This document shows, one piece after another, positions 16,587-43,135 of a stretch of 58,079 nucleotides of DNA. Position 1 is the first letter of the stretch, and every line of letters starts with the position of its first letter. The DNA lies in sequence record SRR22947725_2610; one strand, written 5' to 3'. The notes beneath the pieces were generated by a model. The model saw nothing but the letters and a program-made list of their open reading frames with translations, did not search any database and was not told the DNA's origin. Position numbers and translations under genes: made by a program.

Positions 16587-17309
16587 CTAGGCGTCAGGAT
16601 TTCCGATGGTGGTTGTGTAGCTAAACATATCAGCCCTTCCCGTTGTAATTCTAAATTCAACTAAGCCTTTACCTTTTGCGTAAGAATGTCTATTTAAGAT
16701 TACAACAGGATCACCCTTATTGATATGAAGTTTTTCAGCAATCTCAGCGTTCGTAATACCTGCTGTTAGAACCTCCTGAGAAGAAGTGATTTGAGTGTTA
16801 AACTGTTTAAAGATGACAGCATACAAGAGATCTGGTATATGAACTGAAGGGTCTTGAAGGCCTTCTACAACTTCAGCAACCCACCATGATTTTTCAACAA
16901 TGATTGGGCTTTTTTTATCAATGTATCCAAGTCTTTCAAGATATATAACATCATCACCTTGATTAATTCCTAGTTGAAAAGCAATTTCCGCAGAAGCTTT
17001 CTCTTTGAGCCTAATGGGTGTTGTTTTGTATATACGAATAGAAGAGCCGTCTTGTTTTCCATAGCTAAAGAAATTAAAGATACTATTGTCAAAACCATGA
17101 TCAGATACATAGGTGCCTTTACCATGGTGCCTATAGAGCACTTTTCTATTTTCAAGTTTATCAATAGCCTTTCTAACGGTTCCGATACTCACATTAAGCT
17201 TTTTTGAGAGTTGTGATTCTGAAGGAATTAAATCTCCAATAATAAGCTCACCACTATTAATTTGATTGTTGATAAGGTCGATTACTTTTTGATAGAGTTT
17301 TTGTGTCAT
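16587..17309 (-). CDS. GntR family regulator with UTRA domain (HutC subfamily)
   Basis: IPSESQL..VSIGTVRKAI..GKGTYV wHTH; C-terminal UTRA-like region. Confidence 0.92.
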   Translation of the reverse strand: MTQKLYQKVIDLINNQINSGELIIGDLIPSESQLSKKLNVSIGTVRKAIDKLENRKVLYRHHGKGTYVSDHGFDNSIFNFFSYGKQDGSSIRIYKTTPIRLKEKASAEIAFQLGINQGDDVIYLERLGYIDKKSPIIVEKSWWVAEVVEGLQDPSVHIPDLLYAVIFKQFNTQITSSQEVLTAGITNAEIAEKLHINKGDPVVILNRHSYAKGKGLVEFRITTGRADMFSYTTTIGNPDA

Positions 17310-17528: not shown

Positions 17529-19016
17529 ATGGAATTTTTAAACTATTTTGATAACGTATTTACCGTTTATCATATCGCGCTTCTCGTTGGCGGGACATTT
17601 GCAGGGATAATACTAGGGGCACTTCCTGGGCTGAGCCCAACGATGTCAGTCGCACTCCTTATTCCTTTTACTTTTCATATGAAGCCTGAAAGTGGTTTGA
17701 TACTTCTTGGCGCTATGTATACCGCAACAGTTGCTGGCGGCGCTATTAGTGCAATTCTTGTCAACGTGCCCGGTGCACCAGCCAATATTGCAACAGCAAT
17801 GGATGGCCACAAAATGGCACAAAGTGGTAAAGCCAAAGATGCACTTCACTACTGTTTCATGAGTTCCTTTGTTGGCGGTATATTTGGCGTTCTAATTCTG
17901 ATTTTCTTCACTCCACCCTTGGCAGCACTTTCACTCAAATTTATGTCAACTGAACTCTTCTGGGTTGCGATTTTGGGAATTACAATAATAGCAACCTTAG
18001 ACTCTAAGTCCGTTATCAAAGGTTTGATGTCAGGTCTATTTGGACTCATGCTTGCAACCATTGGTGAGCACCCAACCAGTGCGATGGAGCGCTTCGTATT
18101 TACTGATCATTTGGAAGGCGGTGTTCATATTGTTGTTGGCCTTATTGGGCTTTTTGCGATGCCCCAAGTCTGGAATCTTTTAGAGAATTTTTATGGCAAG
18201 AAGAATGAAGTGTTTTCAGCAACGGGGGACTCAACCCTGATGCAATCATTTAGACTTGTTTCTAGCAAAGTCAAGGCATTATCAGTTGGCTCTTTGATTG
18301 GTTCAATCATTGGAATTATTCCTGGAGCAGGCGGTCAAATAGCAGGCATCGTTGCCTACGACCAGTCTAAAAAAATTAGCTCTAACCGAGCGAACTATGG
18401 AAAGGGAGAGCCTGAAGCGATTATTGCAGCTGAGAGTGCTAATAACTCAATGGTTGGGCCTTCATTAATACCACTTTTAACGCTCAGTATTCCTGGGAGT
18501 CCTACGGCTGCTGTCTTGTTGGGCGGTCTGCTAATTCATGGCATTTTTCCAGGCCATGATATCTTTACTAAAAACACTGAAGTGGTTTGGACCTTTATTG
18601 ACTCTCTCATCATTGCTCAAGTTTTGATGCTCATTATTGGACTCTTTTTGAGTCGCCATAGTAAATGGATTATGAAGGTTCCAGATAACTATATGGCTGT
18701 AGGCATTTTGTTGCTTGCTGTTTTTGGAACCTACAGCATTCAAAATGATTACTCTGATGTGCTCATTATGTTTACGCTAGGTACTTTAATGTACTTTGGA
18801 AGTAAAGCTGGTTTTAGCCCAGTTCCAGTCGTTTTAGGTTTGATTTTAGGAACGATGACGGAAGAAAAGTTCCTTCTTGGAAATATGATTGGTAATGCAA
18901 AGGGTAGCTCTTTTCAGCACTTTACCTCTGGAACAATCAACATTGTGTTAATTACCTTGTGCTTTGTTTCTATCGCATATGGTATTTACTCAAGCCGAAA
19001 ATCTAAACAGAGCTAA
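17529..19016 (+). CDS. tctA: tripartite tricarboxylate transporter large permease TctA
   Basis: GALPGL, ILVNVPGAP, AAESANNS, IPLLTLSIPGS. Confidence 0.93.
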   Translation: MEFLNYFDNVFTVYHIALLVGGTFAGIILGALPGLSPTMSVALLIPFTFHMKPESGLILLGAMYTATVAGGAISAILVNVPGAPANIATAMDGHKMAQSGKAKDALHYCFMSSFVGGIFGVLILIFFTPPLAALSLKFMSTELFWVAILGITIIATLDSKSVIKGLMSGLFGLMLATIGEHPTSAMERFVFTDHLEGGVHIVVGLIGLFAMPQVWNLLENFYGKKNEVFSATGDSTLMQSFRLVSSKVKALSVGSLIGSIIGIIPGAGGQIAGIVAYDQSKKISSNRANYGKGEPEAIIAAESANNSMVGPSLIPLLTLSIPGSPTAAVLLGGLLIHGIFPGHDIFTKNTEVVWTFIDSLIIAQVLMLIIGLFLSRHSKWIMKVPDNYMAVGILLLAVFGTYSIQNDYSDVLIMFTLGTLMYFGSKAGFSPVPVVLGLILGTMTEEKFLLGNMIGNAKGSSFQHFTSGTINIVLITLCFVSIAYGIYSSRKSKQS

Positions 19017-19019
19017 TAT

Positions 19020-19451
19020 ATGAACAAACAAATCAAAATTTCTACTGTCCTTGTTACTCTCGTAAGTGCATTTCTGGTTTATGCTTCATTTGTTCTTGGG
19101 AACTCGGAAGACTATCTATTCCCAAGACTCATTTCATCGATGATTGCAGTGTTATCTCTGATGCTGTGGTTTGAGAAAGGGGATGCCGACAAATCCACTA
19201 ATTTCAAAGACTTAATGCCTGGCATTGCGATTGCCACAGCATTTATCTTATTACTCAAAATACTAGGCTTTTATTTGGCCTCAATGATCGTATTCTTTTC
19301 GCTTGTGATGTATTACAGCAAGCCTTCAGAATCAAAAGACTTTTGGCGTGTGTTGCTCATAAAACTGGGTATCACTATTGTGTTCACTATGACGCTTTAT
19401 GGGTTATTTACACTACTTTTACAGGTTCGCACTCCAGAAGGTTTGTTTTAA
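19020..19451 (+). CDS. tctB: tripartite tricarboxylate transporter small subunit TctB
   Basis: 4 hydrophobic helices, FP motif, LGF, C-terminal LQVRTPEG; between tctA and tctC. Confidence 0.85.
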   Translation: MNKQIKISTVLVTLVSAFLVYASFVLGNSEDYLFPRLISSMIAVLSLMLWFEKGDADKSTNFKDLMPGIAIATAFILLLKILGFYLASMIVFFSLVMYYSKPSESKDFWRVLLIKLGITIVFTMTLYGLFTLLLQVRTPEGLF

Positions 19452-19473
19452 TAATAAAAAAAAAGGAGAAGTA

Positions 19474-20433
19474 ATGAAAATTATAAATATAACAAAAGTA
19501 GCCCTGCTTGCTATAGCATCATTGATGCTAATGCCAGCTCAGGCTGACTACCCTGATAAGCCTATTGGCGTCATGGTAGCTTATGGCCCTGGTGGTGCCA
19601 CAGACTTCCAAGCTAGAATCGCAACACTTGCGTCTGGCAAAGAGGATCTTATTGGTCAGCCGATCTATATTCTTAATAAGCCTGGTGCTGGTGGTAGAAA
19701 GGGTTGGAACTGGTTTGCCAGTGAAGCCTCACAGGATGGATATATGCTAGGTGCATATAATGTCCCTCACTTTATAGCTCAGTCAATTGTATTTGATACA
19801 AAATACAATATTAACAACCTAGAGCCAATCGGAAACTGGGGTGCAGATCCTGCGGTATTAATTGTTGGCAAGGACAGCCCATTCAATACAGTTGGAGAGC
19901 TATTAGCTCACGCAGAAGCAAATCCTGGTGCTGTCACAATAAGTGGTGCTGGAAAGTTTGTTGGTCACCATATTGCATTTTTGCAGTTTGCTAAGGCTTC
20001 AGGTGCTAACTTAACTTATATCCCAGCTTCGGGTGGTGTAGACGCATTAAGAATGGTCAAGGCTGGAGAAACAGTAGCTGGATTTAATAACCTTTCTGAC
20101 TCCGCTAGAAGTGCAGCTGATCTTAAGATATTAGCAGTTGCAGACCTGTCAAGACATGAGTACTTGCCTGACGTACCTACACTTCAGGAGAGCGGTGTTG
20201 ACGTTGATGATTCAAGTGTTAACTTCCGTGGATTGATGGTTCCAGCAGGAACTCCACAGGATGTTATTGACTATCTTGCTAGTAAAGTGCCAAATATGTT
20301 TGGTGAAAAGAAGACTGTAGGAAAAATGAAGTCAACTAACTCGCCTGCAAGAATAATGAATAGAGGTGAGGTTATAAGCATGTGGAATGAAAGACAGGCT
20401 TATTTAACAGATCTTTTGGCTGGTCTTCAATAA
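19474..20433 (+). CDS. tctC: tripartite tricarboxylate transporter substrate-binding protein TctC/Bug
   Basis: start moved to ATG 19474 after AAGGAG; signal peptide, YPDKPI, PGGATD, NKPGAGG, PDVPTL. Confidence 0.92.
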   Translation: MKIINITKVALLAIASLMLMPAQADYPDKPIGVMVAYGPGGATDFQARIATLASGKEDLIGQPIYILNKPGAGGRKGWNWFASEASQDGYMLGAYNVPHFIAQSIVFDTKYNINNLEPIGNWGADPAVLIVGKDSPFNTVGELLAHAEANPGAVTISGAGKFVGHHIAFLQFAKASGANLTYIPASGGVDALRMVKAGETVAGFNNLSDSARSAADLKILAVADLSRHEYLPDVPTLQESGVDVDDSSVNFRGLMVPAGTPQDVIDYLASKVPNMFGEKKTVGKMKSTNSPARIMNRGEVISMWNERQAYLTDLLAGLQ

Positions 20434-20456
20434 AGTAAAATCTATTGAAAATTAAT

Positions 20457-20485
20457 TTTGCTAGGGAGTTTTGCTCCCTAGCAAA
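20457..20485 (+). terminator. strong intergenic hairpin after tctC (partial terminator or mRNA stabiliser)
   Basis: TTTGCTAGGGAG-ttttg-CTCCCTAGCAAA, weak U-tail. Confidence 0.7.
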
Positions 20486-20506
20486 TCTTATTAACAATAA
20501 TTCAAA

Positions 20507-23416
20507 ATGACGATCCAACACAACACCTTAATTGAAAAGCTAGTCGCTAATGCGAAAAAAGCTCAAGAAACAATCAATAACTACTCCCAAGAGCAAGTTG
20601 ATGAATTAATATTAGCGGTAGCCTGGGAGATTATTCAGCCAGAAAATAACCAAGAACTCTCCGAGATGGCAGTTAAAGATACGGGTCTTGGAAATATTGA
20701 AGATAAAAAACGCAAAAATCGACGTAAAACACTGGGACTTTTAAGAGACTTAAAGGGCGTAAAAACGGTCGGCATTATTGATCAAAATGTTCAAAAAGGC
20801 ATCATTGAAATAGCCAGGCCTGTTGGCGTTATTGGGGCAGTTGTACCCTCTACAAACCCAGTTGCAACTCCCCTTAATAAAGTCATCAATGCTTTAAAGT
20901 GTAGAAATGCAATCATTCTTGCGCCATCACCAAAAGGTGCTAAAGTTTGTACGCGTGTTGTCGAGCTTATCCAAATAGCACTTACTCGAATTGGAGCTCC
21001 AAAAAACATTGTTCAGTCCCTGCCTGAGCCGATCAGCAAGGAAGACACCAATGAGCTATCTAAACTTGTAGATTTAATTGTCGCAACAGGCTCTCAAAAC
21101 AATATTCAAAGGGCGCTTCAGAGTGGGACTCCAACGCTTGGAGTAGGAGTTGGCAATGTCCCCTCCATTATTGATGAGAGCGCTAATCTTAATGATGCGT
21201 CTCACAAAATTATGACTTCAAAAACGTTTGATAATGCAACTAGCTGCTCCTCTGAGAATAGCATCATAGTTCTAGAGAGTGTTTATGAAGAACTAATTAA
21301 ATCTCTAGAGGAAGAGGGTGGCTCCCTCTTAGACATCCAAGAGAAAAAAATACTCCAACAAGGCATGTGGAGTGAAAATGGCATTATCAATAGAGACATC
21401 ATAGCTAAGAAGTCAAACGAAATAGCTACACTTGTTGGCCTTAAAGGTAATCATTTGAGCTCAAAATTCCTCATGGTAGAGGAGCAAAATGTAGGTCTAG
21501 ACTTTCCATTTTCAATGGAAAAGCTGTCCCCTGTTTTGGCAGTATATAAAGCAAAAGACTTTAGTCATGCAGTTGAAATTGCAACACTGATTTTAAAAAA
21601 TCAAGGTAAAGGACACTCGTGCGGCATTCATAGCCAAAACGAGGACAACATAGAAAGGCTTGGAATGGAGCTTCCAGTGTGCAGAGTTATTGTAAACCAA
21701 GCTCACTGCTTTGCGACTGGCGGTAATTTTGATAATGGACTTCCATTTTCTTTATCAATGGGCTGCGGAACCTGGGGCAACAATGTCACTGATGAAAATT
21801 TAAATTACAAGCACTATCTAAACATTACCAAAATTGTCAAAACTATTGAACCTGATGAGCCATCTGAAAAAGATATTTTCTCGGATTACTGGGAAAAGTA
21901 CTCCTTGAAAAGCTCAACAGTGACAAAGTTAGTTGACCAGTATGCTTATGATACACCTGAGAAAAATTTCCTAATTGATGCAGATCTAAATCTTCACGTG
22001 TCATACAGTCAGCTTCAAAAAGATATACTCGCTTTAGGCACTTTCTTTAAAGCAAACAGCATTCATTCAAATGACAAGGTTGGATTTATGCTTGATAATG
22101 GTTACGCCTCAACGCTGCTTTTTGTTGGTGCAATGTACCATGGCGTTGTCATCGTTCCTTTGAACGTCTTAGCAGGCTCTAAACAAATTAAATATACAAT
22201 TGATCACTCAGAGTGCAAAATCATCTTTGCATCAAGCCTCTACACTGATAAGTTCAAAGACATTTTGAGTGCTTCAGATGCAAGTGTTGTAGAGTATAGT
22301 CAAATTGATAGTCTAAAGATTGCTGATAAAGATTCATTAGATGAGGCAATGACCTTAACTGATCCAGATACACCAGCAGTTTTAATTTATACATCTGGGA
22401 CAACAGGCGTTCCAAAAGGCGCTCTTTTATCTCATAAAAATGTAATTGCTGGGGGCAGGAACACGGTCATCGCTCACGAGATCAGTTCGAGTGATATTTC
22501 GTTCTGCGTATTACCGCTCTATCATATTAATGCTGAAATGGTATCCATTGCAAGTGCGCTAGTTAGTAATAGCTGCGTGGTGACGGTTGGCAAGTTCAGC
22601 GTTAAGAATTTTTGGCAAATAATTGAAAAATATGAATGCAGCTGGTTTAGTGTTGTTCCAACAATTATTAATTACTTACTAAATGATAATTTTAATGTCA
22701 AAACATTAGAACTGAAAAATTTGCGCTTTGGTCGCTCTGCTTCAGCACCTCTTTCACCAGAGGTTCACAAGAAGTTTGAAAAAACGTTTGGCGTGAAGAT
22801 TATTGAAACGATGGGACTAACTGAGACAGCCGCTCAAATACTGTCCAACCCACCTACCAATGGAAAGCATGGCTCTGCTGGAAAAGCTTACGGCAATGAA
22901 GTCAGAGTCATAGCAGATAACGGTAGTTACCTTTCTCATGGAAATACAGGAGAGTTAGTCATTAAAGGTGACAACGTTTTATTAGAATATTTTAAGAATG
23001 AAGAGGCAACTTCTGGAGCCTTCAATGAGGATGGCTATTTTTTAACAGGCGACCTTGGTGTTGAAGATGAAGATGGGTTCTTCTTCATAACAGGAAGAAA
23101 GAAAGAGCTTATCATAAAGGGTGGTGAAAACATCTCACCAAGAGAGATTGATGATACTTTATACAAGCATAACGCTGTATTAGAAGCTTGCACCTTCGGT
23201 ATTGAAGATGATAACTATGGTGAAGAAATATCAGCCTGTGTCTTTTTAAAGGACGATCTTGTTGCCAATGAAAAGGAACTTCTTGACCTATGCAAGGCTG
23301 ACCTTGGTGAATATAAAACCCCCAGACAGATTATTTTTGTAGATGAGCCTTTACCCAAAGGCCCTTCAGGAAAAATTCAAAGACTTAAAATTGCAAGTCA
23401 ATACGGCAGGGCTTAA
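20507..23416 (+). CDS. fused acylating (sulfoacet)aldehyde dehydrogenase + acid-CoA ligase (SauS-SauT-like)
   Basis: N-half: PSTNP, ATGS, GVGVGN, KTFDNATSCSSEN, EKLSP, QAHCFATGGNFDNGLPFSLSMGCGTWG; C-half: YTSGTTGVPKG, ETMGLTET, TGDLG, LPKGPSGKIQR; no stop at junction. Confidence 0.85.
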   Translation: MTIQHNTLIEKLVANAKKAQETINNYSQEQVDELILAVAWEIIQPENNQELSEMAVKDTGLGNIEDKKRKNRRKTLGLLRDLKGVKTVGIIDQNVQKGIIEIARPVGVIGAVVPSTNPVATPLNKVINALKCRNAIILAPSPKGAKVCTRVVELIQIALTRIGAPKNIVQSLPEPISKEDTNELSKLVDLIVATGSQNNIQRALQSGTPTLGVGVGNVPSIIDESANLNDASHKIMTSKTFDNATSCSSENSIIVLESVYEELIKSLEEEGGSLLDIQEKKILQQGMWSENGIINRDIIAKKSNEIATLVGLKGNHLSSKFLMVEEQNVGLDFPFSMEKLSPVLAVYKAKDFSHAVEIATLILKNQGKGHSCGIHSQNEDNIERLGMELPVCRVIVNQAHCFATGGNFDNGLPFSLSMGCGTWGNNVTDENLNYKHYLNITKIVKTIEPDEPSEKDIFSDYWEKYSLKSSTVTKLVDQYAYDTPEKNFLIDADLNLHVSYSQLQKDILALGTFFKANSIHSNDKVGFMLDNGYASTLLFVGAMYHGVVIVPLNVLAGSKQIKYTIDHSECKIIFASSLYTDKFKDILSASDASVVEYSQIDSLKIADKDSLDEAMTLTDPDTPAVLIYTSGTTGVPKGALLSHKNVIAGGRNTVIAHEISSSDISFCVLPLYHINAEMVSIASALVSNSCVVTVGKFSVKNFWQIIEKYECSWFSVVPTIINYLLNDNFNVKTLELKNLRFGRSASAPLSPEVHKKFEKTFGVKIIETMGLTETAAQILSNPPTNGKHGSAGKAYGNEVRVIADNGSYLSHGNTGELVIKGDNVLLEYFKNEEATSGAFNEDGYFLTGDLGVEDEDGFFFITGRKKELIIKGGENISPREIDDTLYKHNAVLEACTFGIEDDNYGEEISACVFLKDDLVANEKELLDLCKADLGEYKTPRQIIFVDEPLPKGPSGKIQRLKIASQYGRA

Positions 23417-23498
23417 ATTAGAATTGAGTTTAATTCTCAAGATATAAAAAATTTACCATTTTCGGGTAAACTATGTCTATCCTTAAAGAGACTCGTTT

Positions 23499-24461
23499 AT
23501 GGCATTACTTGATGATTTAACCAGCAAGGCTAAAAGCAAATATCCTCGAATTTTATTACCTGAATCGACTGACTCCAGAATCATAGCGGCAGCCAAGTCA
23601 ATTAAAGATCAAAAAATAGCTCAAATAGTCCTTTTTGATGAAGAGTCTGCATCTTCTTTGGGGCTTGAGTCAATCAACCCAAAAAACGAAGATTTGAAAG
23701 CACAATATACGCAGACATTATTTGAGCTACGAAAACATAAAGGTGTGACAGTCGAATCAGCATTAGAGATGCTTTCAAATAAAAGTGTCTTTGCTATGAT
23801 GGCTCTTCAAAGGGGCGACGTTGATGGGGTTGTTACTGGCGCAATAACGCCGAGCCAAGAAGTCCTGAGTAACGCACTGAGGATTGTTGGGGTTGCAGAG
23901 GGAAGTAAGCTGGTTTCAAGCTTGTTCTTAATGGTTTTTGACGATAATCATAGTATGTATGGCGGCAACTTGATTTTTTCTGACTGCGCAATGAATATTA
24001 ATCCAAATTCTGAAGAGTTGGCCGAGATTGCTAAAAGCGCATACGAGACGGCGCAATCTCTTCTAACACAGAGCCCTAAACTCGCTATGCTTTCATTTTC
24101 TACTAATCAGAGTGCTAAGCATGCTGAGGTGGATAAGGTAAGAGAGGCAACTGAGCTTCTAAGATCATCACTTCCAGATATTAACATTATCGGTAATGTT
24201 CAGCTGGATGCTGCACTAGATCCAGACGTATTAAAAATCAAAGATTCAGATTCCTCTTTCTTGCCACCTGCCAATGTGTTTATCTTCCCGAATCTGGATG
24301 CTGGGAATATAGGCTATAAATTAGTCCAGCGATTCTCTGGCGCTAGAGCGATTGGCCCAATCCTTCAAGGGCTCTCAAAGCCAGTCAATGACTTATCTAG
24401 AGGTTGCAGCGTTGATGAAATCATTAATACGGTGGTTGTAACAGCAAATCAGTGTAAGTAG
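23499..24461 (+). CDS. pta: phosphate acetyltransferase (short form)
   Basis: LPE..D.R, SDCAMN, MLSFST, QLDAA, FPNLDAGNIGYK, PVNDLSRG. Confidence 0.92.
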   Translation: MALLDDLTSKAKSKYPRILLPESTDSRIIAAAKSIKDQKIAQIVLFDEESASSLGLESINPKNEDLKAQYTQTLFELRKHKGVTVESALEMLSNKSVFAMMALQRGDVDGVVTGAITPSQEVLSNALRIVGVAEGSKLVSSLFLMVFDDNHSMYGGNLIFSDCAMNINPNSEELAEIAKSAYETAQSLLTQSPKLAMLSFSTNQSAKHAEVDKVREATELLRSSLPDINIIGNVQLDAALDPDVLKIKDSDSSFLPPANVFIFPNLDAGNIGYKLVQRFSGARAIGPILQGLSKPVNDLSRGCSVDEIINTVVVTANQCK

Positions 24462-24463
24462 CT

Positions 24464-26083
24464 CTACATTCCTATGTAGTTTGGTCCGCCTCCGCCTTCT
24501 GGCGGTACCCAGTTAATGTTTTGTGATGGATCTTTTATGTCACAGGTCTTACAGTGAAGACAGTTTTGAGCGTTGATTTGAAAATAGTCCTCACCTTCTT
24601 TGTCAACAATCTCATAGACGCCAGCAGGGCAGTACCTTTGTGCTGGTTCATCAAACAACTCTTTATTACGATTCAACGGGATAGAAGGGTCAGTTAATTT
24701 AAGGTGAACGGGCTGATCTTCCTCGTGATTTGTACCTGAGAGAAATAGTGATGAAGTGATATCAAAACTTAAAACATTGTCTGGGGCAGGGTACTCTTTG
24801 GAATAGAGTGGATTATTTAAGTTTAGCGAGTCGCAATCCCTTTGCTCATCTTTGATAGTGACTGGCAATGAATTTCTAAAGATATTTGACTCTATAAAGT
24901 TATAGGCAGCACCTATATAAAAGCCAAACTTATGCATTGCTGCACTGAAGTTTCGTGACTTGTAAAGCTCATTATAGAGTGCACTACTTTTAAATAAATC
25001 ATCAAACTCACATATCTCTTCTGAAAGTATTTTGTTAATATATTCAGCAGCTAAAATGCCTGACTGTAGCGCGCAATGGCTTCCCTTAATCTTACTTGGA
25101 TTAAGAGTCCCAGCGTCACAACCAATTATCATTCCACCATTAAAGTCCATCTTCACAAGTGAATTTATACCGCCTTTAGTGATCGCTCTAGCGCCGTATG
25201 AAACACGCTTACCTGACTCTAAAAATTGTTTAATTTTTGGGTGTTTTTTAAACTGTTGAAATTCTTGGAAAGGGCTGTGACTTGGATTAGTATAGTTAAG
25301 GTCAACAATCAGGCCTACAGCAATACGATTGTTGTCAAAATGGTAAAGGAAGCCGCCTCCGGTTGTTCCTTCGTTGAGTGGCCAGCCCATTGTATGGACA
25401 ACATCTCCAGCGCTATACATGTCATTTTCAACTTCCCAGACCTCTTTAAATCCGATTGCAAAGTGTTGCGGCGTTTTGCCTTCATCGAGATTGAACTCTT
25501 TGATAAGCTGCTTACCTAGGTGACCCCTTGCGCCTTCAGCAAAAATGGTCTGTTTTGCAAGAATATCCATTCCGGGTGTGTAGGTACCTTTTTGGTTGCC
25601 TTCTTTATCAATCCCCATGTCACCAGTTGAAATACCAATAACTCTACCACTTTCATCTTTAATGTAGCTTTGAGCTGGAAAGCCTGGAAAGATATCTACA
25701 CCAAGCTCCATCGCCTTTTCAGAGATCCACTGACAGAGTTCACCCAAAGAAATAATGTAGTTGCCTTTGTTGTGAAGACTCTTTGGCATTAACCAAGAGG
25801 GTACTTTAATACTCTTATTTTCTCCTGTTAGCCAGAACAGCTCATCTTTGGCAACCTGAGTTTTAAGTGTTGGGCAATCTTTAGCGTCCTCAGGAAACAA
25901 ATCAAAGAGCGTTTTGGGTTCAAAAACTGCACCTGAGAGAATATGGGAGCCTATTTCAGATCCTTTTTCTAGGAGACAGACAGAGAGGTTTGGATTGAGC
26001 TGCTTGAGTTTGCAAGCGGAAGAGAGCCCTGATGGACCGCCACCCACTATTACAACATCATATTTAATCGATTCTCTATCCAT
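24464..26083 (-). CDS. electron transfer flavoprotein-ubiquinone oxidoreductase
   Basis: GGGPSGL, EKGSEIGSHILSGA, YCPAGVYE, NCLHCKTCDIKDP. Confidence 0.95.
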   Translation of the reverse strand: MDRESIKYDVVIVGGGPSGLSSACKLKQLNPNLSVCLLEKGSEIGSHILSGAVFEPKTLFDLFPEDAKDCPTLKTQVAKDELFWLTGENKSIKVPSWLMPKSLHNKGNYIISLGELCQWISEKAMELGVDIFPGFPAQSYIKDESGRVIGISTGDMGIDKEGNQKGTYTPGMDILAKQTIFAEGARGHLGKQLIKEFNLDEGKTPQHFAIGFKEVWEVENDMYSAGDVVHTMGWPLNEGTTGGGFLYHFDNNRIAVGLIVDLNYTNPSHSPFQEFQQFKKHPKIKQFLESGKRVSYGARAITKGGINSLVKMDFNGGMIIGCDAGTLNPSKIKGSHCALQSGILAAEYINKILSEEICEFDDLFKSSALYNELYKSRNFSAAMHKFGFYIGAAYNFIESNIFRNSLPVTIKDEQRDCDSLNLNNPLYSKEYPAPDNVLSFDITSSLFLSGTNHEEDQPVHLKLTDPSIPLNRNKELFDEPAQRYCPAGVYEIVDKEGEDYFQINAQNCLHCKTCDIKDPSQNINWVPPEGGGGPNYIGM

Positions 26084-26094
26084 TAATTACTATT

Positions 26095-27021
26095 TTATAC
26101 CTGATAAGCGTTTAATTCATTAAGTGCATCAAATAAGTCGACCTGCCAGACTATATCAGCCATCCTTGACATTGGTGCGTCTGGATCGTTGTTTATCACG
26201 ACAATAACTTGAGAATCTTTCATTCCAGCAAGATGCTGAATCGCTCCAGAAATTCCAACAGCAAGGTAAAGCTTAGGCGCAACAACCTTTCCAGTTTGTC
26301 CAACTTGATAGTCATTAGAAATAAACCCGGCGTCAACTGCAGCCCTTGAGGCGCCAACTGCGGCGTCTAGTTTATCTGCTAACTGCTCAATCATTGCAAA
26401 GTTATCTTTAGACCCAAGCCCTCTACCGCCAGATACAATGCGCTCTGCAGTAGTTAGTTCTGGACGCTCTGATTGTGACTCTTGAAGAGAGATAAATGTG
26501 GAGTTTGACTCTGGCATTGCAGGAGACAACGCTTCTACAGCAGCAGAACCACCATCTTCAGCATGCTCAAAGGCAGTTGCTCTGACCGTCATGACAATCG
26601 TATCATCAGAAGTCTCTACAGTTGCCATCACATTGCCAGCATACAAAGGTCTGACAAAGGTGTTTGATGATTTAATCTCACAGACATCCGAGATAGGCTG
26701 AACATCAAGGAGAGCACCAACGCGCGGCAAAATATTTTTACTGTAAGTAGATGAGCCTGAAACCAAGAATTTGTAATCAGACATGACATCAGCAATCAGT
26801 TTGCTTGCAACTTCCACATTAGCATGCTCAAGAGAATCATCAACGATTGTTTTGACAGTGTTAATTCCACTCATCGAAGCGGCTGAGCTTGCGTTAGCTG
26901 AATCGTTAGTGAGAACTATTGCATCAACACTATCAGAAAGCTGAAGGGCTGCAGTTAATGCTGCTCTGCTATTTGCGCTAACCTCTGAACCATTTAGTTC
27001 GATTAATATAAGTGCTGACAT
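26095..27021 (-). CDS. etfA: electron transfer flavoprotein alpha subunit
   Basis: SGGRG, GASRAAVDAG, QVGQTGK, GISGAIQHLAGM. Confidence 0.95.
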   Translation of the reverse strand: MSALILIELNGSEVSANSRAALTAALQLSDSVDAIVLTNDSANASSAASMSGINTVKTIVDDSLEHANVEVASKLIADVMSDYKFLVSGSSTYSKNILPRVGALLDVQPISDVCEIKSSNTFVRPLYAGNVMATVETSDDTIVMTVRATAFEHAEDGGSAAVEALSPAMPESNSTFISLQESQSERPELTTAERIVSGGRGLGSKDNFAMIEQLADKLDAAVGASRAAVDAGFISNDYQVGQTGKVVAPKLYLAVGISGAIQHLAGMKDSQVIVVINNDPDAPMSRMADIVWQVDLFDALNELNAYQV

Positions 27022-27783
27022 TTATAGAACTCCCATTTGATTTAACTCAGTGAATAGCTCTTCAGCAGAACTAATCTGCTTTGAGGCTCTATCTTTAGTG
27101 CCTGACTCCTCTACACTGACGACCTTAATACGAGGAGATGTGTCAATTCCAAGACTCGATAATTCAATCGTCTCTAATGGCTTAGATCTTGCCTTCATAA
27201 TGTTTGGAAGTGAGGCATATCTTGGCTCGTTTAATCTAAGATCAACGGTTACGATGGCAGGCAAGTTAAGTTTTCTAGTTTCAATACCTGAGTCAATTTC
27301 ACGGCTGACTTCTACACTATTAGAGTCAGAACTTAAATCAAATTTAGAGATAAATGTGCCCAGTGAATAATTTAATAAACCAGATAATATTTGACCAGTC
27401 TGGTTATTGTCATTGTCAACAGCTTGCTTACCCATAATGATAAGCTGCGCTTCCTCACGCTGAATGATATTAGCTAGAATTTTGCCAACATGAAGCGGCT
27501 GAAGATCAAGCTCTGAATCGGTTTTAATAAATATAGCGCGATCAACGCCCATGGCCAGAGCAGTTCTGAGCGTGTCAACCGTTTTATCGGTACCTATACT
27601 CACAGCAATGGTCTCAGTAGCAGCGCCACTTTCTTTTAAAGTTAACGCCTCCTCCACTGCAATCTCACAAAAGGGATTCATCGCCATTTTTGCATTTGAT
27701 AAATCGACCTGCTGAGTCTGCTTATTTACTCGAGCCTGCGTGTAAGGATCGAGAACTCTTTTAACTGGAATAATTATTTTCAT
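27022..27783 (-). CDS. etfB: electron transfer flavoprotein beta subunit
   Basis: MNPFCEIAVEEA, ALAMG.D, GKQAVD, LNEPRYASLPNIMKA. Confidence 0.95.
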   Translation of the reverse strand: MKIIIPVKRVLDPYTQARVNKQTQQVDLSNAKMAMNPFCEIAVEEALTLKESGAATETIAVSIGTDKTVDTLRTALAMGVDRAIFIKTDSELDLQPLHVGKILANIIQREEAQLIIMGKQAVDNDNNQTGQILSGLLNYSLGTFISKFDLSSDSNSVEVSREIDSGIETRKLNLPAIVTVDLRLNEPRYASLPNIMKARSKPLETIELSSLGIDTSPRIKVVSVEESGTKDRASKQISSAEELFTELNQMGVL

Positions 27784-40939: not shown

Positions 40940-42946
40940 TTAAAATTTGTATGTAAGTCCTGCTTTAATATTTCTAGTCGAGTTACCTGGGTATATAACA
41001 TCATCTCTCAAACGCGTTCCATAGCTATTTTCAAATAAATTTTCAACATCAAAAGAAAAGCTTAGGTCATCGTTGGGGTTGTAAGAAAAGTTAAAGTTTG
41101 TTGAATTATATTCCGGCTGTTTTTTTGTAAATATATTTGCATAATCCTCTTCTGCAAAAGCTTCACTACGATATTTTTGAGTCAGTGTCATATTAGTCTT
41201 ATTGCTCAAGCTATATATAACAGAAGCTGAAATATTATGCTTTGAGGTCATTGGATTTGTTTTTCCATTTAATGCACCTGCGCCTTTATCATCCGAATCT
41301 ATCTTAGCAATTGTATAAGCGTAATTAAGGCCAGTAGACCATTTTGGACTAAAAACATATTTATTCTGAAGCTCTAGACCTTGCTTATGAGATTTATCAA
41401 GATTTAGATTATCACCATATAGCCCACAATCTGATGCTGCATTTGACTTACATAAAAACATTTCGTCTTTAATATTTGAGCGATATAAGGTTAACTTAGT
41501 CTTGGAATTATCAGTTAGATGGTTTAGTCCAATATTGAAGGTTCTGCTTTTAGATGGGCGGACAAACCCGTTGAATACTTGACCGGTAGCAGGCCATGTA
41601 GCAGAAATAAAGAATCGATCAATTAAAGGGGCTTGAAAGGCATGGTTATAATTCGTAAATATAGTGGTATTAGGGCTCAAAGAGGTATTTATACCAATAT
41701 CAAACGCATTTAAATCATATTCGCCAGACAATGCAGTGCCAGACTCAGGGCTGTACTTATAATCTACTTTTTCCGAGCGAGCACCAACGGTAAATACTGA
41801 ATCATTTCTGAAATATTGAAGCTGAGAAAATACACCTAAGTTTTCCTTTGAAGTTGTATTACGAGAGCTAACACTGGTTGATTCAACTGTTCTCTTCCCA
41901 TCAAATATATTTACACCACTATCAATTTTTATATCTCCATTTGTATATGTTAATAGGTAGTCATTGCTCTTATAATCATACTTGTAGTTATCAACAGTTG
42001 CTCCTGAGTAAGAGTAAAAATTTCTACTTTCTTTATCAATAGCTGATCTATTTGTTGTGAATTCAAAATTTTCACCCCAGTTACGTTTTACTTTGAAGTT
42101 AGTTGTACTTGACTCAGCATCACGGTAGGTGTATCTGCTTCCAGATCCACTTCCAGTTGGGTCAGCTTCAAATTGAGCATCACTAAGGTAGTTTGGATAT
42201 CTAATGTCAGAATTAGTTCTATAAAGGTCTAGTGATATTTCTGTCCCACCATCAGTAGCATAGGTGCCACCAATACTTGATTTAGTTTGTTTGCCTTTAT
42301 CTTTAACTCCTCCAGTAGCGGCTTTATGAAAGCCATCATGCTTGGAGTTATCTAAAGAAATATTTAAGTCAATTTTTTCATCATTAATACCAACAGATGC
42401 AGAGGTTTGAGAGACGCCATAATTTCCTGAGGTTGTTGATATTTTAGTCTGTATATTCTTTTTTGTATAAAAATGAATAGCACCTGCCATCGCGCTATCA
42501 CCATAAATTACTGACCCACTTCCTTTAGTAATTTCGACTCTTTCAATATCATTGATGTTAACTCCAGCAATTTCTGGGCCACTAGTATCAATATTATTGA
42601 GTCTTCTGCCGTTTAAAGTAACAACAAGATTATGAGAACCAATAGTTAAACCATAACCACGAGCGGAGATTTTTTTAGAAAATCTATTTCCAGACGATGG
42701 AGCAAGTGATAGCGAGGTGTTTTGTGATAAAAAATCATAGATATTGGTTGCATTTGAATTTTTAATATCATCTTGCGTATAAACCTCTGATGAAAATGGA
42801 GCAAAAGTATCCACTTCATTAAAGTAATTTGAAGATAACTCTGTAGGATTTAAAGTAATTTTGATTGGACCGATTACAGCGTTTGAAGGTTGCGATAAAA
42901 CAAGTGCTGAAAAAGAGACAGCAAGAAATATTTTTTTATTAAACAT
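40940..42946 (-). CDS. btuB: TonB-dependent receptor, probable cobalamin uptake (BtuB-like)
   Basis: signal peptide, plug motif IERVEITKGSGSVIYG, NLF, terminal YKF; B12 riboswitch upstream and cobO downstream. Confidence 0.75.
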   Translation of the reverse strand: MFNKKIFLAVSFSALVLSQPSNAVIGPIKITLNPTELSSNYFNEVDTFAPFSSEVYTQDDIKNSNATNIYDFLSQNTSLSLAPSSGNRFSKKISARGYGLTIGSHNLVVTLNGRRLNNIDTSGPEIAGVNINDIERVEITKGSGSVIYGDSAMAGAIHFYTKKNIQTKISTTSGNYGVSQTSASVGINDEKIDLNISLDNSKHDGFHKAATGGVKDKGKQTKSSIGGTYATDGGTEISLDLYRTNSDIRYPNYLSDAQFEADPTGSGSGSRYTYRDAESSTTNFKVKRNWGENFEFTTNRSAIDKESRNFYSYSGATVDNYKYDYKSNDYLLTYTNGDIKIDSGVNIFDGKRTVESTSVSSRNTTSKENLGVFSQLQYFRNDSVFTVGARSEKVDYKYSPESGTALSGEYDLNAFDIGINTSLSPNTTIFTNYNHAFQAPLIDRFFISATWPATGQVFNGFVRPSKSRTFNIGLNHLTDNSKTKLTLYRSNIKDEMFLCKSNAASDCGLYGDNLNLDKSHKQGLELQNKYVFSPKWSTGLNYAYTIAKIDSDDKGAGALNGKTNPMTSKHNISASVIYSLSNKTNMTLTQKYRSEAFAEEDYANIFTKKQPEYNSTNFNFSYNPNDDLSFSFDVENLFENSYGTRLRDDVIYPGNSTRNIKAGLTYKF

Positions 42947-43009
42947 TATGACCCCTTATAAATAGAAATTTAAAGAGGGATTGAGAGATAAAGAGTCAAT
43001 CAATTATGA

Positions 43010-43135
43010 ATCCTTAACTCACCACCCATCGTAGTATTAAGTAAATCAATTTGACACGTATCGGACTAATCTAGAAGAAACACCGTTGCGAGGGCAGCGT
43101 TGGAATCACACCAACTTCCGTCGTCAAATTGAGTC
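43010..43135 (-). ncRNA. compact cobalamin riboswitch (class II / variant type)
   Basis: minus strand TCAATTTGAC-GACGGAAGTTGGTGTGATTCCAACGCTGCCCTCGCAACGGT...AGTCCGATAC-GTGTCAAATTGA, then hairpin whose CGATGGG can kiss CCCTCG. Confidence 0.88.

Follow-up and report, generated by a model that had tools for sequence, protein, structure and literature searches.

Two proteins encoded by separate adjacent genes are described for sulfoacetate reduction in Cupriavidus necator H16, namely SauT, a sulfoacetate-CoA ligase of the AMP-forming type, and the acylating sulfoacetaldehyde dehydrogenase SauS (PMC10413351, excerpt); the substrate is taken up in this strain by the MFS transporter SauU (PMC12625764, excerpt). 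Clusters in which SauS and SauT are combined with a TTT transporter of the SauXYZ type have also been published. SauZ binds sulfoacetate with a Kd of 0.13 uM, and its alpha- and gammaproteobacterial homologues are mostly linked with SauT and SauS (PMC10413351, excerpt). In Bilophila wadsworthia, the SauXYZ-SauS-SauCD system has a TTT transporter beside SauS and a sulfoacetyl-CoA intermediate, which is made by the ADP-forming two-subunit ligase SauCD, while sulfoacetaldehyde is passed on to isethionate and a glycyl-radical lyase (PMC10413351, excerpt).

The DNA analysed here, a window of 58,079 nucleotides taken as a whole, comes from a Pseudothioglobus singularis-like genome and carries an operon of the order tctABC (TTT)-sauST-pta, beside which a GntR regulator is transcribed divergently (Table 1). 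The sauST gene probably encodes a bifunctional SauS-SauT enzyme of single-origin fusion that would convert sulfoacetate to sulfoacetaldehyde. Compared with the C. necator H16 proteins, which were considered by description only, both chemical steps, both superfamilies and the S-then-T order are the same; here, however, a single polypeptide without an added linker is found, pta is part of the operon with xsc elsewhere, and a TTT system takes the place of SauU. The TTT transporter beside SauS and the sulfoacetyl-CoA intermediate are shared with Bilophila, whereas the ligase of the present locus is AMP-forming and fused, and an Xsc/Pta route would replace the isethionate branch. No published description of a SauS-SauT fusion was found in the literature searched, and the labels of the protein in public records are confined to "aldehyde dehydrogenase family protein" or a generic ligase or reductase.

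Table 1 Features of the sauST locus, in positions of the window
Feature	Coordinates	Strand	Residues and motifs	Basis
GntR/UTRA (HutC-type) regulator, divergent, candidate for the operon	16587..17309	-		Pfam GntR + UTRA
TctA-family large membrane subunit of TTT transporter, SauX/Y-like	17529..19016	+		Pfam TctA, 432 bits
TctB-family small membrane subunit	19020..19451	+		Pfam TctB
TctC-family periplasmic binding protein, SauZ-like	19474..20433	+		Pfam TctC
Stem-loop of 13 bp between tctC and fusion gene	20457..20485	+		RNAfold
Fusion gene, single unbroken reading frame	20507..23416	+	ATG start, TAA end, 969 aa	
Putative SauS domain, residues 1-470	20507..21916	+	Catalytic C247 (codon 21245-21247), T116, E338, H370; native C-terminal tail with helix 454-465	NF047625 match, invariant residues, 8CEI/5J78 alignment, AF2 model
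Putative SauT domain, residues 471-969 and stop codon	21917..23416	+	P-loop YTSGTTGVPKG, TGD, GRKKELIIKGGENI, K956 (codon 23372-23374)	Pfam AMP-binding + AMP-binding_C, invariant motifs
Phosphate acetyltransferase Pta	23499..24461	+		TIGR00651, 335.7 bits (cut-off 311.2)

Pfam divides the protein into Aldedh (residues 8-270), AMP-binding (478-829) and AMP-binding_C (880-956), and the best 120 database matches are all of 967-969 aa with all three domains. A preliminary description of this DNA had proposed a continuous 969-aa frame made up of an acylating aldehyde dehydrogenase, with its catalytic Cys in NATSCSSEN, and a CoA ligase ending in PKGPSGKIQR, and it had likened the two halves to SauS and SauT. 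This was borne out: the frame runs from ATG to TAA and, of the 43 genomes of the genus, 17 likewise have it open, the Cys is C247 and is invariant in a 40-row alignment, both AMP-binding Pfam domains are present with K956 as the lysine of the terminal motif, and the two likenesses are supported by a curated family model and by gene orthology, respectively.

The N-terminal half scored 702.8 bits with the NCBIfam SauS equivalog NF047625, above its cut-off of 600, with protein residues 6-465 matching model positions 3-462 of 464. This curated model supports its assignment as a CoA-acylating sulfoacetaldehyde dehydrogenase (SauS). For residue comparison, the structures of the succinyl-CoA reductase of C. 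kluyveri (8CEI) and of an acetylating enzyme (5J78) were used. T116, C247, E338 and H370 do not vary across the 40 rows of the alignment and align with Thr112, Cys242, Glu332 and His364 of 8CEI, the roles of which are as given in PMC12041015 (excerpt). The candidate anion-binding residues K74 and S248 have as their counterparts in 8CEI Lys70 and Ser243, which place the distal carboxylate of its substrate (PMC12041015, excerpt); 5J78 has Ala at both positions.

The C-terminal half retains all core motifs of the ANL superfamily in the alignment (P-loop, TGD, GRxKE..GGENI and K956). None of the curated family cut-offs was reached, the top model being the generic PRK06187 with 342.6 bits vs 476, and no NCBIfam SauT model was among the matches to the 969-aa protein. 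Identification as SauT is supported by orthology to the ligase genes next to sauS: of the 22 split clusters examined, 21 have an orthologue of the C-half directly downstream of sauS, namely 17 of 18 extended gammaproteobacterial loci and all four named MAG loci (42-46% identity in the latter). Over both sets the identity to the C-half is 42-53%, and among the matches listed, those at 34-38% identity are ligases that lack an adjacent sauS. The search of genome contigs with the ligase alignment picked up generic ANL motif patterns, 4 of the 80 matches listed being SauT-like and none a Cupriavidus necator locus. In the tree of the ligase half, the fused rows nest inside the clade of sauS-adjacent ligases, and the C-half is thus predicted to be a sulfoacetate-CoA ligase of the AMP-forming type. 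The nearest solved structures are the oxalate-CoA ligases 5IE0, 6QJZ and 8AFF and the malonyl-CoA synthetase 4FUQ. Enzymes that activate small di-anionic acids are thus the nearest structural neighbours of this half. One column, S780, had come up as a residue specific to the ligase clade; it was dropped because the outgroup used in the comparison probably still contained SauT orthologues.

The sequence DYWEKYSLKSSTV (residues 460-472, 21884-21922) had been regarded as a linker. Its position holds, apart from a start that lies one base earlier, at 21884, but nothing has been inserted there: SauS's own conserved C-terminal tail makes up residues 446-470, and T471-V472 match positions 3-4 of a stand-alone SauT. 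The tail helix of SauS continues directly into SauT residue 3 with no linker added. This is the layout expected if about 11 nt, comprising stop codon, spacer and start codon, had been deleted, and such a deletion is sufficient since the stop codon of sauS and the start codon of sauT are only 2 nt apart in the split relative L015 (TAA CC ATG). Translation of a separate SauT from an internal start was rejected, as the eight orthologues compared share no start codon close to the junction. In each of the two half-trees the fused rows form one clade (SH-aLRT 100 and 99), indicating a single origin, and it is proposed that the fusion arose once, in the Pseudothioglobus ancestor, from adjacent sauS and sauT genes through loss of stop, spacer and start. 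Genes that abut and encode consecutive enzymes fuse frequently, and the fusion is therefore no surprise in kind.

A survey of related genomes, as had been suggested, showed that the fusion is a lineage-restricted variant of the known two-enzyme pathway. Within the genus, 17 of 43 genomes lie above the SauS cut-off, and every one has the fusion intact, with open frames of 766-989 aa; the fused state is retained down to 68% identity, and no reversion to the split form was seen among these 17. Outside the genus, all 26 SauS matches above the cut-off are stand-alone proteins, and among 1.84 billion representatives a single cluster at 50% identity shows the fusion architecture. Eight orthologues contain no stops, with dN of 0.10-0.30, saturated dS and dN/dS of 0.05-0.07 in the SauS core. 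Purifying selection is strong across both halves and the junction.

That the long frame is an artefact of sequencing or assembly, or a decaying pseudogene, is refuted by these data and has practically no probability left; no point in its support was found. Hundreds of independent metagenome contigs, like the 17 genus genomes, have the frame open, it is under the selection just described, and region 21880-21930, singled out at the outset for a stop or frameshift, contains neither and is spanned without gaps by metatranscriptome contigs from four runs of four studies. The gene was found in six RNA runs of five studies; contigs from RNA libraries indicate presence and are not proof of transcription. 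The window differs from the other data by a single indel, one base in an intergenic A-run (19448-19456). In some RNA runs contig depth was greater over tctC than over the fusion gene, although such depth cannot rank genes.

The neighbourhood of the fusion gene agrees with the TTT and pta genes noted earlier, with Pfam TctA, TctB and TctC and TIGR00651 matches and a layout like that of published SauXYZ-type clusters. With tctA, tctB and tctC adjoining sauS, the locus has the gene arrangement of the SauXYZ type, and its TctC protein is a candidate sulfoacetate-binding member of the SauZ cluster UniRef50_Q165A0. In related loci, tctA is syntenic with sauS, and in 17 of 18 extended loci the gene immediately upstream of sauS is tctC. 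The start of tctC is most likely the ATG at 19474 and not that at 19399 of the ORF list; a GGAG stands ahead of the former, the N-terminus that it opens resembles a signal peptide, and the match of the nearest genome, G001, begins only at residue 21 of the longer ORF. At the site of this locus's stem-loop, past tctC and ahead of the fusion gene, all eight related loci have a hairpin of 11-14 bp with differing stem sequences, and a partial terminator or an mRNA-stabilising element is its likely function. Homologues of the GntR gene, likewise divergent, adjoin split clusters in L015, L030, L031, L033, L035 and L037.

Statements on the whole genome rest on G001, whose fusion gene is 98% identical. 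The pta gene downstream of the fusion is the sole pta found in G001. No xsc gene is present in the window; in G001 it lies about 120 kb from the fusion in a tauR-tpa-ald-xsc/tauE cluster, while in another member of the genus, G013, it begins 46 nt past the fusion. Xsc is encoded in 16 of 18 fusion-bearing genomes of the genus, the remaining two being only 70% and 80% complete, and it lies within the sauS cluster in 4 of 18 extended loci and two of the four named MAG loci.

In the proposed pathway, sulfoacetate would be taken up by the co-transcribed TTT transporter and converted by the C-terminal ANL ligase domain, via the adenylate, with ATP and CoA to sulfoacetyl-CoA, AMP and PPi. The acyl group would then be transferred to C247 of the N-terminal ALDH domain with release of CoA, and reduction with NAD(P)H would yield sulfoacetaldehyde. 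The net reaction would be sulfoacetate + ATP + NAD(P)H to sulfoacetaldehyde + AMP + PPi + NAD(P)+, in which CoA is recycled catalytically. Xsc, encoded elsewhere in the genome, would form sulfite and acetyl phosphate, and the latter would be turned into acetyl-CoA by the Pta of the operon. Both the substrate, sulfoacetate, and the cofactor, NAD(P)H, are deduced from the assignments given above. The established thermodynamics of AMP-forming ligases, with their release of PPi, led to the rejection of a reverse role in which sulfoacetate would be formed.

It is quite improbable that the enzyme pair instead reduces another small anionic acid (e.g., malonate, oxalate, succinate or 3-sulfopropionate) to its corresponding aldehyde, with the operon then serving a pathway other than that of sulfoacetate. 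Such a function would suit the lack of a dedicated family model for the ligase half and the oxalate- and malonate-activating enzymes among its nearest structures, as well as the score of the ALDH half against the succinyl-CoA reductase 8CEI, which is nearly equal to that against acetylating enzymes. Against it, the N-half passes the SauS equivalog cut-off, the sulfoacetaldehyde-specific Xsc is encoded beside or inside orthologous clusters, and the only pta of the genome, the partner of Xsc, sits in the operon.

Whether the sulfoacetate-active fusion passes its thioester directly from one domain to the other was considered separately. Channelling appears possible, at somewhat less than an even chance. 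In the AF2 model each domain is confident (mean pLDDT 91.0), but their mutual placement is not (pTM 0.62), and residues 461-470 have a pLDDT of 63; because the arrangement of the domains is left unsure, the model gives no computed support for a fixed inter-domain tunnel. A complex prediction with the two halves as separate chains (a 40-row alignment each), run without controls, gave a score of 0.00, the mark being 0.32, and is neutral with regard to an interface between them. The chances are nearly even that the fusion is real and active on sulfoacetate but does not channel, the domains exchanging free sulfoacetyl-CoA: a neutral or economy product of genome streamlining, brought about by a small deletion between overlapping or abutting genes and kept for 1:1 expression and less regulatory sequence. 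The inter-domain geometry, which the AF2 model does not fix, the 2-nt spacing of the split genes in L015, for which an 11-nt deletion is enough, and the absence of any gained linker or new interface element all speak for this, as do the small genomes of the genus (0.7-1.8 Mb). The retention of the fusion in 17 of 17 SauS-bearing genus genomes, down to 68% identity, with dS saturated and with no reversion seen, counts against a product without benefit; this persistence fits a selective advantage, without proving one. A benefit of the fused sulfoacetate enzyme may lie in local sulfoacetyl-CoA/CoA, a fixed 1:1 stoichiometry or economy in a 1.7-Mb genome.

In a more speculative version, which seems unlikely, the protein would be a CoA-based carboxylic acid reductase without a carrier domain, and its thioester would at no point equilibrate with the cytoplasm: a single CoA, moving between the ligase and ALDH sites, would act as a non-covalent swinging arm, or the ALDH Cys would be acylated directly from sulfoacetyl-AMP with CoA dispensable, and the tail helix would serve as a docking element. 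An assay of SauCD with SauS in the absence of CoA gave 14% of the full rate, and another activated intermediate was suggested for SauS (Liu et al. 2023, PMC10413351, excerpt). If this version were true, SauS and SauT would have been pre-adapted for fusion by the conserved tail helix 454-465, a feature that stand-alone SauS shares.

Fusions with comparable chemistry are known from other families. AdhE, in which an ALDH reductase is likewise fused to a neighbouring pathway enzyme, has an ALDH half that is the closest structural family, but its partner domain is an Fe-ADH, where the present protein has an AMP-forming CoA ligase. PRK13805 (AdhE) matches the ALDH half only (model positions 10-451 of 872; 395 bits vs a cut-off of 951), and Pfam has no match to an Fe-ADH domain in the 969-aa protein, which places it outside AdhE. 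Plant Delta1-pyrroline-5-carboxylate synthetase (P5CS) has glutamate kinase as its other half; it also fuses ATP-dependent activation to reduction of the activated acyl group, but its partner is this kinase. The C-terminal part of the multifunctional plant enzyme is a glutamyl-gamma-phosphate reductase (PMC12041015, excerpt). Carboxylic acid reductase (CAR) and alpha-aminoadipate reductase are A-T-R fusions that perform the same net chemistry, carboxylate to aldehyde with ATP and NAD(P)H, in one polypeptide; the R domain of CAR is related to the GapDH superfamily (PMC12041015, excerpt), whereas the reductase found here belongs to the ALDH superfamily. Both enzymes begin with the ANL adenylating domain, unlike the present one, in which the reductase comes first, and the acyl carrier of CAR is a covalent phosphopantetheine arm on a PP-binding domain, where free CoA would be used here. 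The three Pfam domains of the 969-aa protein (Aldedh, AMP-binding, AMP-binding_C) include no PP-binding carrier. On this domain content, the protein is CAR-like in its predicted net chemistry and is not a member of the CAR family. In the excerpt of the 2025 review PMC12041015, no AMP-forming CoA ligase partner appears for ALDH fusions among the matches listed.

The protein is thus predicted to be a natural single-protein acid-to-aldehyde reductase that uses free CoA in place of a phosphopantetheinylated carrier, and for that reason a PPTase would not be needed. Its split orthologues are ready controls for the question of fusion vs channelling. Marine metagenomes commonly contain the fusion gene, which also occurs in metatranscriptomes, and its junction sequence offers a specific single-gene marker for the predicted sulfoacetate trait. 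Pseudothioglobus (ARCTIC96BD-19), heterotrophic relatives of SUP05, is one of the abundant groups of bacterioplankton. The fusion points to sulfoacetate as a likely source of carbon, energy or sulfur for these bacteria, and in this it bears on the marine sulfur cycle.

The fusion gene encodes one uninterrupted polypeptide of 969 residues, as the ORF listing and the translation bear out, and Pfam recognizes Aldedh (residues 8-270), AMP-binding (478-829) and AMP-binding_C (880-956) domains in it. Its top database match, at 99 % identity, is an 'aldehyde dehydrogenase family protein [Candidatus Pseudothioglobus singularis]' from a gammaproteobacterium of the family Pseudothioglobaceae; the G+C content of the window is about 38 %. 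The genome nearest to the window, G001, has 54 % of sampled words in common with it and carries the same fusion gene at 98 % identity.

The assignment of the N-terminal half to the acylating aldehyde dehydrogenases, made in the preliminary description, was confirmed: residues 6-465 match NCBIfam NF047625, the equivalog model for 'acylating sulfoacetaldehyde dehydrogenase', with 702.8 bits (curated cut-off 600), and the models ranked next, for AdhE and EutE-type acetaldehyde dehydrogenase, both score far under their own cut-offs. Residues T116, C247, E338 and H370 are invariant in a 40-row alignment and align with Thr112, Cys242, Glu332 and His364 of the succinyl-CoA reductase of Clostridium kluyveri (8CEI), residues to which the available text of a 2025 review assigns CoA positioning, the thioester nucleophile, NADP ribose binding and a proton relay (PMC12041015). 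In the alignment, the counterparts of K74 and S248 in the same reductase are Lys70 and Ser243, which position the distal carboxylate of succinyl-CoA according to that text (PMC12041015), and both positions are Ala in the acetylating enzyme 5J78. This match fits an acyl group with a negative charge, such as sulfoacetyl. The third carboxylate-positioning residue of 8CEI, Thr395, is unmatched in the fusion, aligning with C401 beside a one-residue gap.

The C-terminal half is the complete CoA ligase that had been proposed, keeping all ANL core motifs (YTSGTTGxPKG, the E of (T/S)E, TGD, GRxKE..GGENI and K956, the lysine of PKGPSGK). It exceeds no curated family cut-off, the best model being the generic PRK06187 (342.6 bits versus 476). 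Its nearest solved structures are the oxalate-CoA ligases 5IE0 (267.7 bits), 6QJZ and 8AFF, followed by FadD13 and malonyl-CoA synthetase. Such ligases act on very small acids with a second negative charge, and sulfoacetate is an acid of the same kind. As the predicted substrate of the fusion, sulfoacetate is well supported by homology and gene context.

The transporter and pta genes mentioned as neighbours were indeed found on either side of the fusion gene, in what is a complete-looking sulfoacetate operon as judged from its genes.

Features around the fusion gene and RNA-library contigs across its junction (window coordinates)
Feature	Coordinates	Strand	Remarks
GntR/UTRA regulator	16587-17309	minus	
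tctA, tctB, tctC		plus	upstream of fusion gene
A-run	19448-19456		nine A's between tctB stop and tctC ribosome-binding site
Stem-loop	20457-20485		13 bp; between tctC and fusion gene
Fusion gene	20507-23416	plus	969 aa
pta	23499-24461	plus	behind fusion gene; TIGR00651, 335.7 bits vs cut-off 311.2
ETF-ubiquinone oxidoreductase, ETF alpha and beta subunits	24464-27783	minus	directly beyond pta; no evident link to sau operon
Contig of run X14	21116-22662		gap-free
Contig of run X15	20846-22089		gap-free
Contig of run X17	21116-22032		gap-free
Contig of run X18	21818-22599		gap-free

Translation of tctC most likely starts at the ATG at 19474 instead of the listed ATG at 19399, since the former has GGAG in front and a signal-peptide-like sequence behind it. 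A hairpin of 11-14 bp occurs at the place matching the stem-loop in all eight related loci, with differing stem sequences and, in some, a T-run after it; in the window it may be a partial terminator or a stabilizer that adjusts how much binding protein is made relative to the enzymes.

No xsc was found in the 58,079 nt of the window. In G001 the gene (TIGR03457, 1017.7 bits, cut-off 676.4) is some 120 kb away from the fusion, in a cluster (G001:C1:790000-808000) with a MocR-type regulator, a class-III aminotransferase and alanine dehydrogenase and with a TauE-family sulfite exporter alongside, which is read as a classical taurine route. A pta is missing from this cluster; G001 has just one, the gene behind the fusion (G001:C1:917140-918036). 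Sulfoacetaldehyde would therefore be the point where the two routes join, and the taurine-type route would depend on the pta of the sau operon.

A survey of related genomes showed SauS to be fused in every genome of the genus Pseudothioglobus in which it exceeds the cut-off and split elsewhere in the samples. All 17 such genomes (of 43) have it in open frames of 766-989 aa, 15 of them of 967-989 aa; an eighteenth genome has a fusion fragment ending at a contig end, and none of the 43 showed a stand-alone SauS above the cut-off. Among 400 genomes sampled evenly across the class, SauS exceeded the cut-off in 21, fused in G001 only and of 477-525 aa in the other 20; for 401 genomes of the phylum the figures were seven, G001 only and 472-541 aa in the other six. 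The genome G082, flagged as unpublished, gave a SauS match below the cut-off only and bears on none of the conclusions. The genus member G012 has a second SauS-like gene (G012:C5:24703-26073), a putative paralogue or pseudogene that scores 436.6 bits, short of the cut-off, and has one TAA within the matched stretch of its 473-aa frame.

The order tctA-tctB-tctC-sauS-ligase is kept in 17 of 18 loci (17 from the class with flanks, plus G037; two further loci are on contigs too short to judge), the exception being L032, with no ligase beside sauS. Four of the 18 have xsc within the cluster and two have pta. In the split cluster L030 (G355:C1:814000-832000), the ligase match is broken into three pieces and that of xsc into two that overlap, a pattern suggestive of frameshifts, whether by gene decay or by faulty assembly. 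Among the matches listed, named MAG loci from Rhizobiaceae, Rudaea, Burkholderiaceae and an unclassified proteobacterium, with ligases 42-46 % identical to the C-terminal half, all four have sauS directly upstream of the ligase, and two have xsc before sauS; four listed loci with ligases only 34-38 % identical have no sauS. Xsc was found in 16 of the 18 fusion-bearing genus genomes, the remaining two being 70 % and 80 % complete. It lies about 10-12 kb from the fusion on the same contig in G010, G044, G045 and G019, and begins 46 nt after the fusion in G013. The latter has xsc twice on one contig, 20 kb apart (G013:C4:21279-23012 and 41379-43112, the second behind the fusion), with equal scores of 1036.2 bits.

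Using HMMER against 1.84 billion representatives, a single protein, P0122 (967 aa, 63 % identity, 1381 bits), matched the fusion end to end; as the library consists of representatives of 50 %-identity clusters, a fused protein could hide behind a non-fused representative. Next among the relevant matches came unfused proteins: ligases (P0124, 513 aa, 54 %) and SauS-like proteins (476-480 aa, 47-51 %). In a Pfam scan of the 20 representatives of 817-1125 aa among the matches listed, plus P0129, only P0122 combined Aldedh with AMP-binding; the others were A-PCP-C or A-PCP-TE proteins, a double ligase, AdhE and a luciferase-like monooxygenase-acylating ALDH fusion. In the listed proteins above 1200 aa, the best stretches all lay within the ligase half. 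P0174 (971 aa) is a different ALDH fusion, apparently not yet described: a luciferase-like monooxygenase domain at its N-terminus is followed at the C-terminus by an acylating ALDH that shares 38 % identity with the SauS half. As far as these searches see, the SauS-SauT fusion is confined to one marine genus.

In both half-domain trees (quick LG+G4, no bootstrap) the fused proteins form one clade, with SH-aLRT values of 100 and 99, nested within the TTT-linked split clade; the fused ligase halves have the stand-alone P0124 as their sister. The split junction of G037 reads ...NIDPNS-TAA-CC-ATG-AAT-ACC-GTC (M N T V Q Y L...) and the fused one ...SLKSS-TVTKLV..., so that the last SauS residue abuts the third SauT residue. 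A deletion of 11 nt (stop, CC, ATG and codon 2) would produce this arrangement, judging from relatives that are about 55 % identical. The stretch previously taken for a linker turned out to be the conserved SauS tail (consensus EP....F..YW), also present in stand-alone SauS. AlphaFold2, with a 77-row alignment, gave a mean pLDDT of 91.0 and a pTM of 0.62, predicting a tail helix (454-465), a low-confidence block (461-470, pLDDT 63) and the first ligase helix (472-482); in this model the domains are well defined singly but their mutual position is not. In ANL enzymes the C-terminal subdomain rotates between the two half-reactions, and a junction at the ligase N-terminus leaves it free.

Eight orthologues at 68-98 % identity lack stop codons. 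Across orthologues dN is 0.10-0.30 and dS is saturated; where dS could be computed, the dN/dS ratio came to 0.05-0.07 for the SauS core and 0.12-0.31 for a 35-residue junction window. There is no conserved start codon near the junction, which makes a separately translated ligase unlikely. At least half of the sampled words of the gene were found in 19 public runs from 14 studies, among them six RNA libraries representing five studies. The stretch 21880-21930 is crossed without a gap by contigs of four RNA runs, each from another study, which indicates presence of the gene rather than proving its transcription. The only indel reported over 19300-24500 is one A fewer in the A-run, a difference shown by the contigs of all four metatranscriptome runs and by G001; with a tctC start at 19474 the run is intergenic, and the difference is probably a homopolymer error or strain variation without consequence. 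The bifunctional SauS-SauT protein is real, conserved and also present in RNA libraries.

In the proposed mechanism, the ligase domain would form sulfoacetyl-AMP and then sulfoacetyl-CoA. The ALDH domain would take the acyl group onto C247, CoA would leave, NAD(P)H would enter the same site and sulfoacetaldehyde would be released; a ping-pong scheme is described for the acylating ALDH family in the available text of PMC12041015. Xsc and Pta would complete the path to acetyl-CoA and sulfite. Given the thermodynamics of AMP-forming ligases, only the reductive, catabolic direction is plausible.

No fused SauS-SauT was found described in the literature searched on sulfoacetate metabolism, acylating ALDH/CoA ligase fusions, channelling or CAR, and nothing was found on Pseudothioglobus and sulfoacetate. 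The available text of PMC10413351 and PMC12625764 mentions no fusion, although figures or supplements could show one, and that of PMC12041015 has no ligase fusion among the ALDH fusions described. The fusion is an apparently undescribed version of the known two-enzyme system of SauS and SauT; it may serve to recycle CoA locally, contain the thioester, fix the stoichiometry or save genome space.
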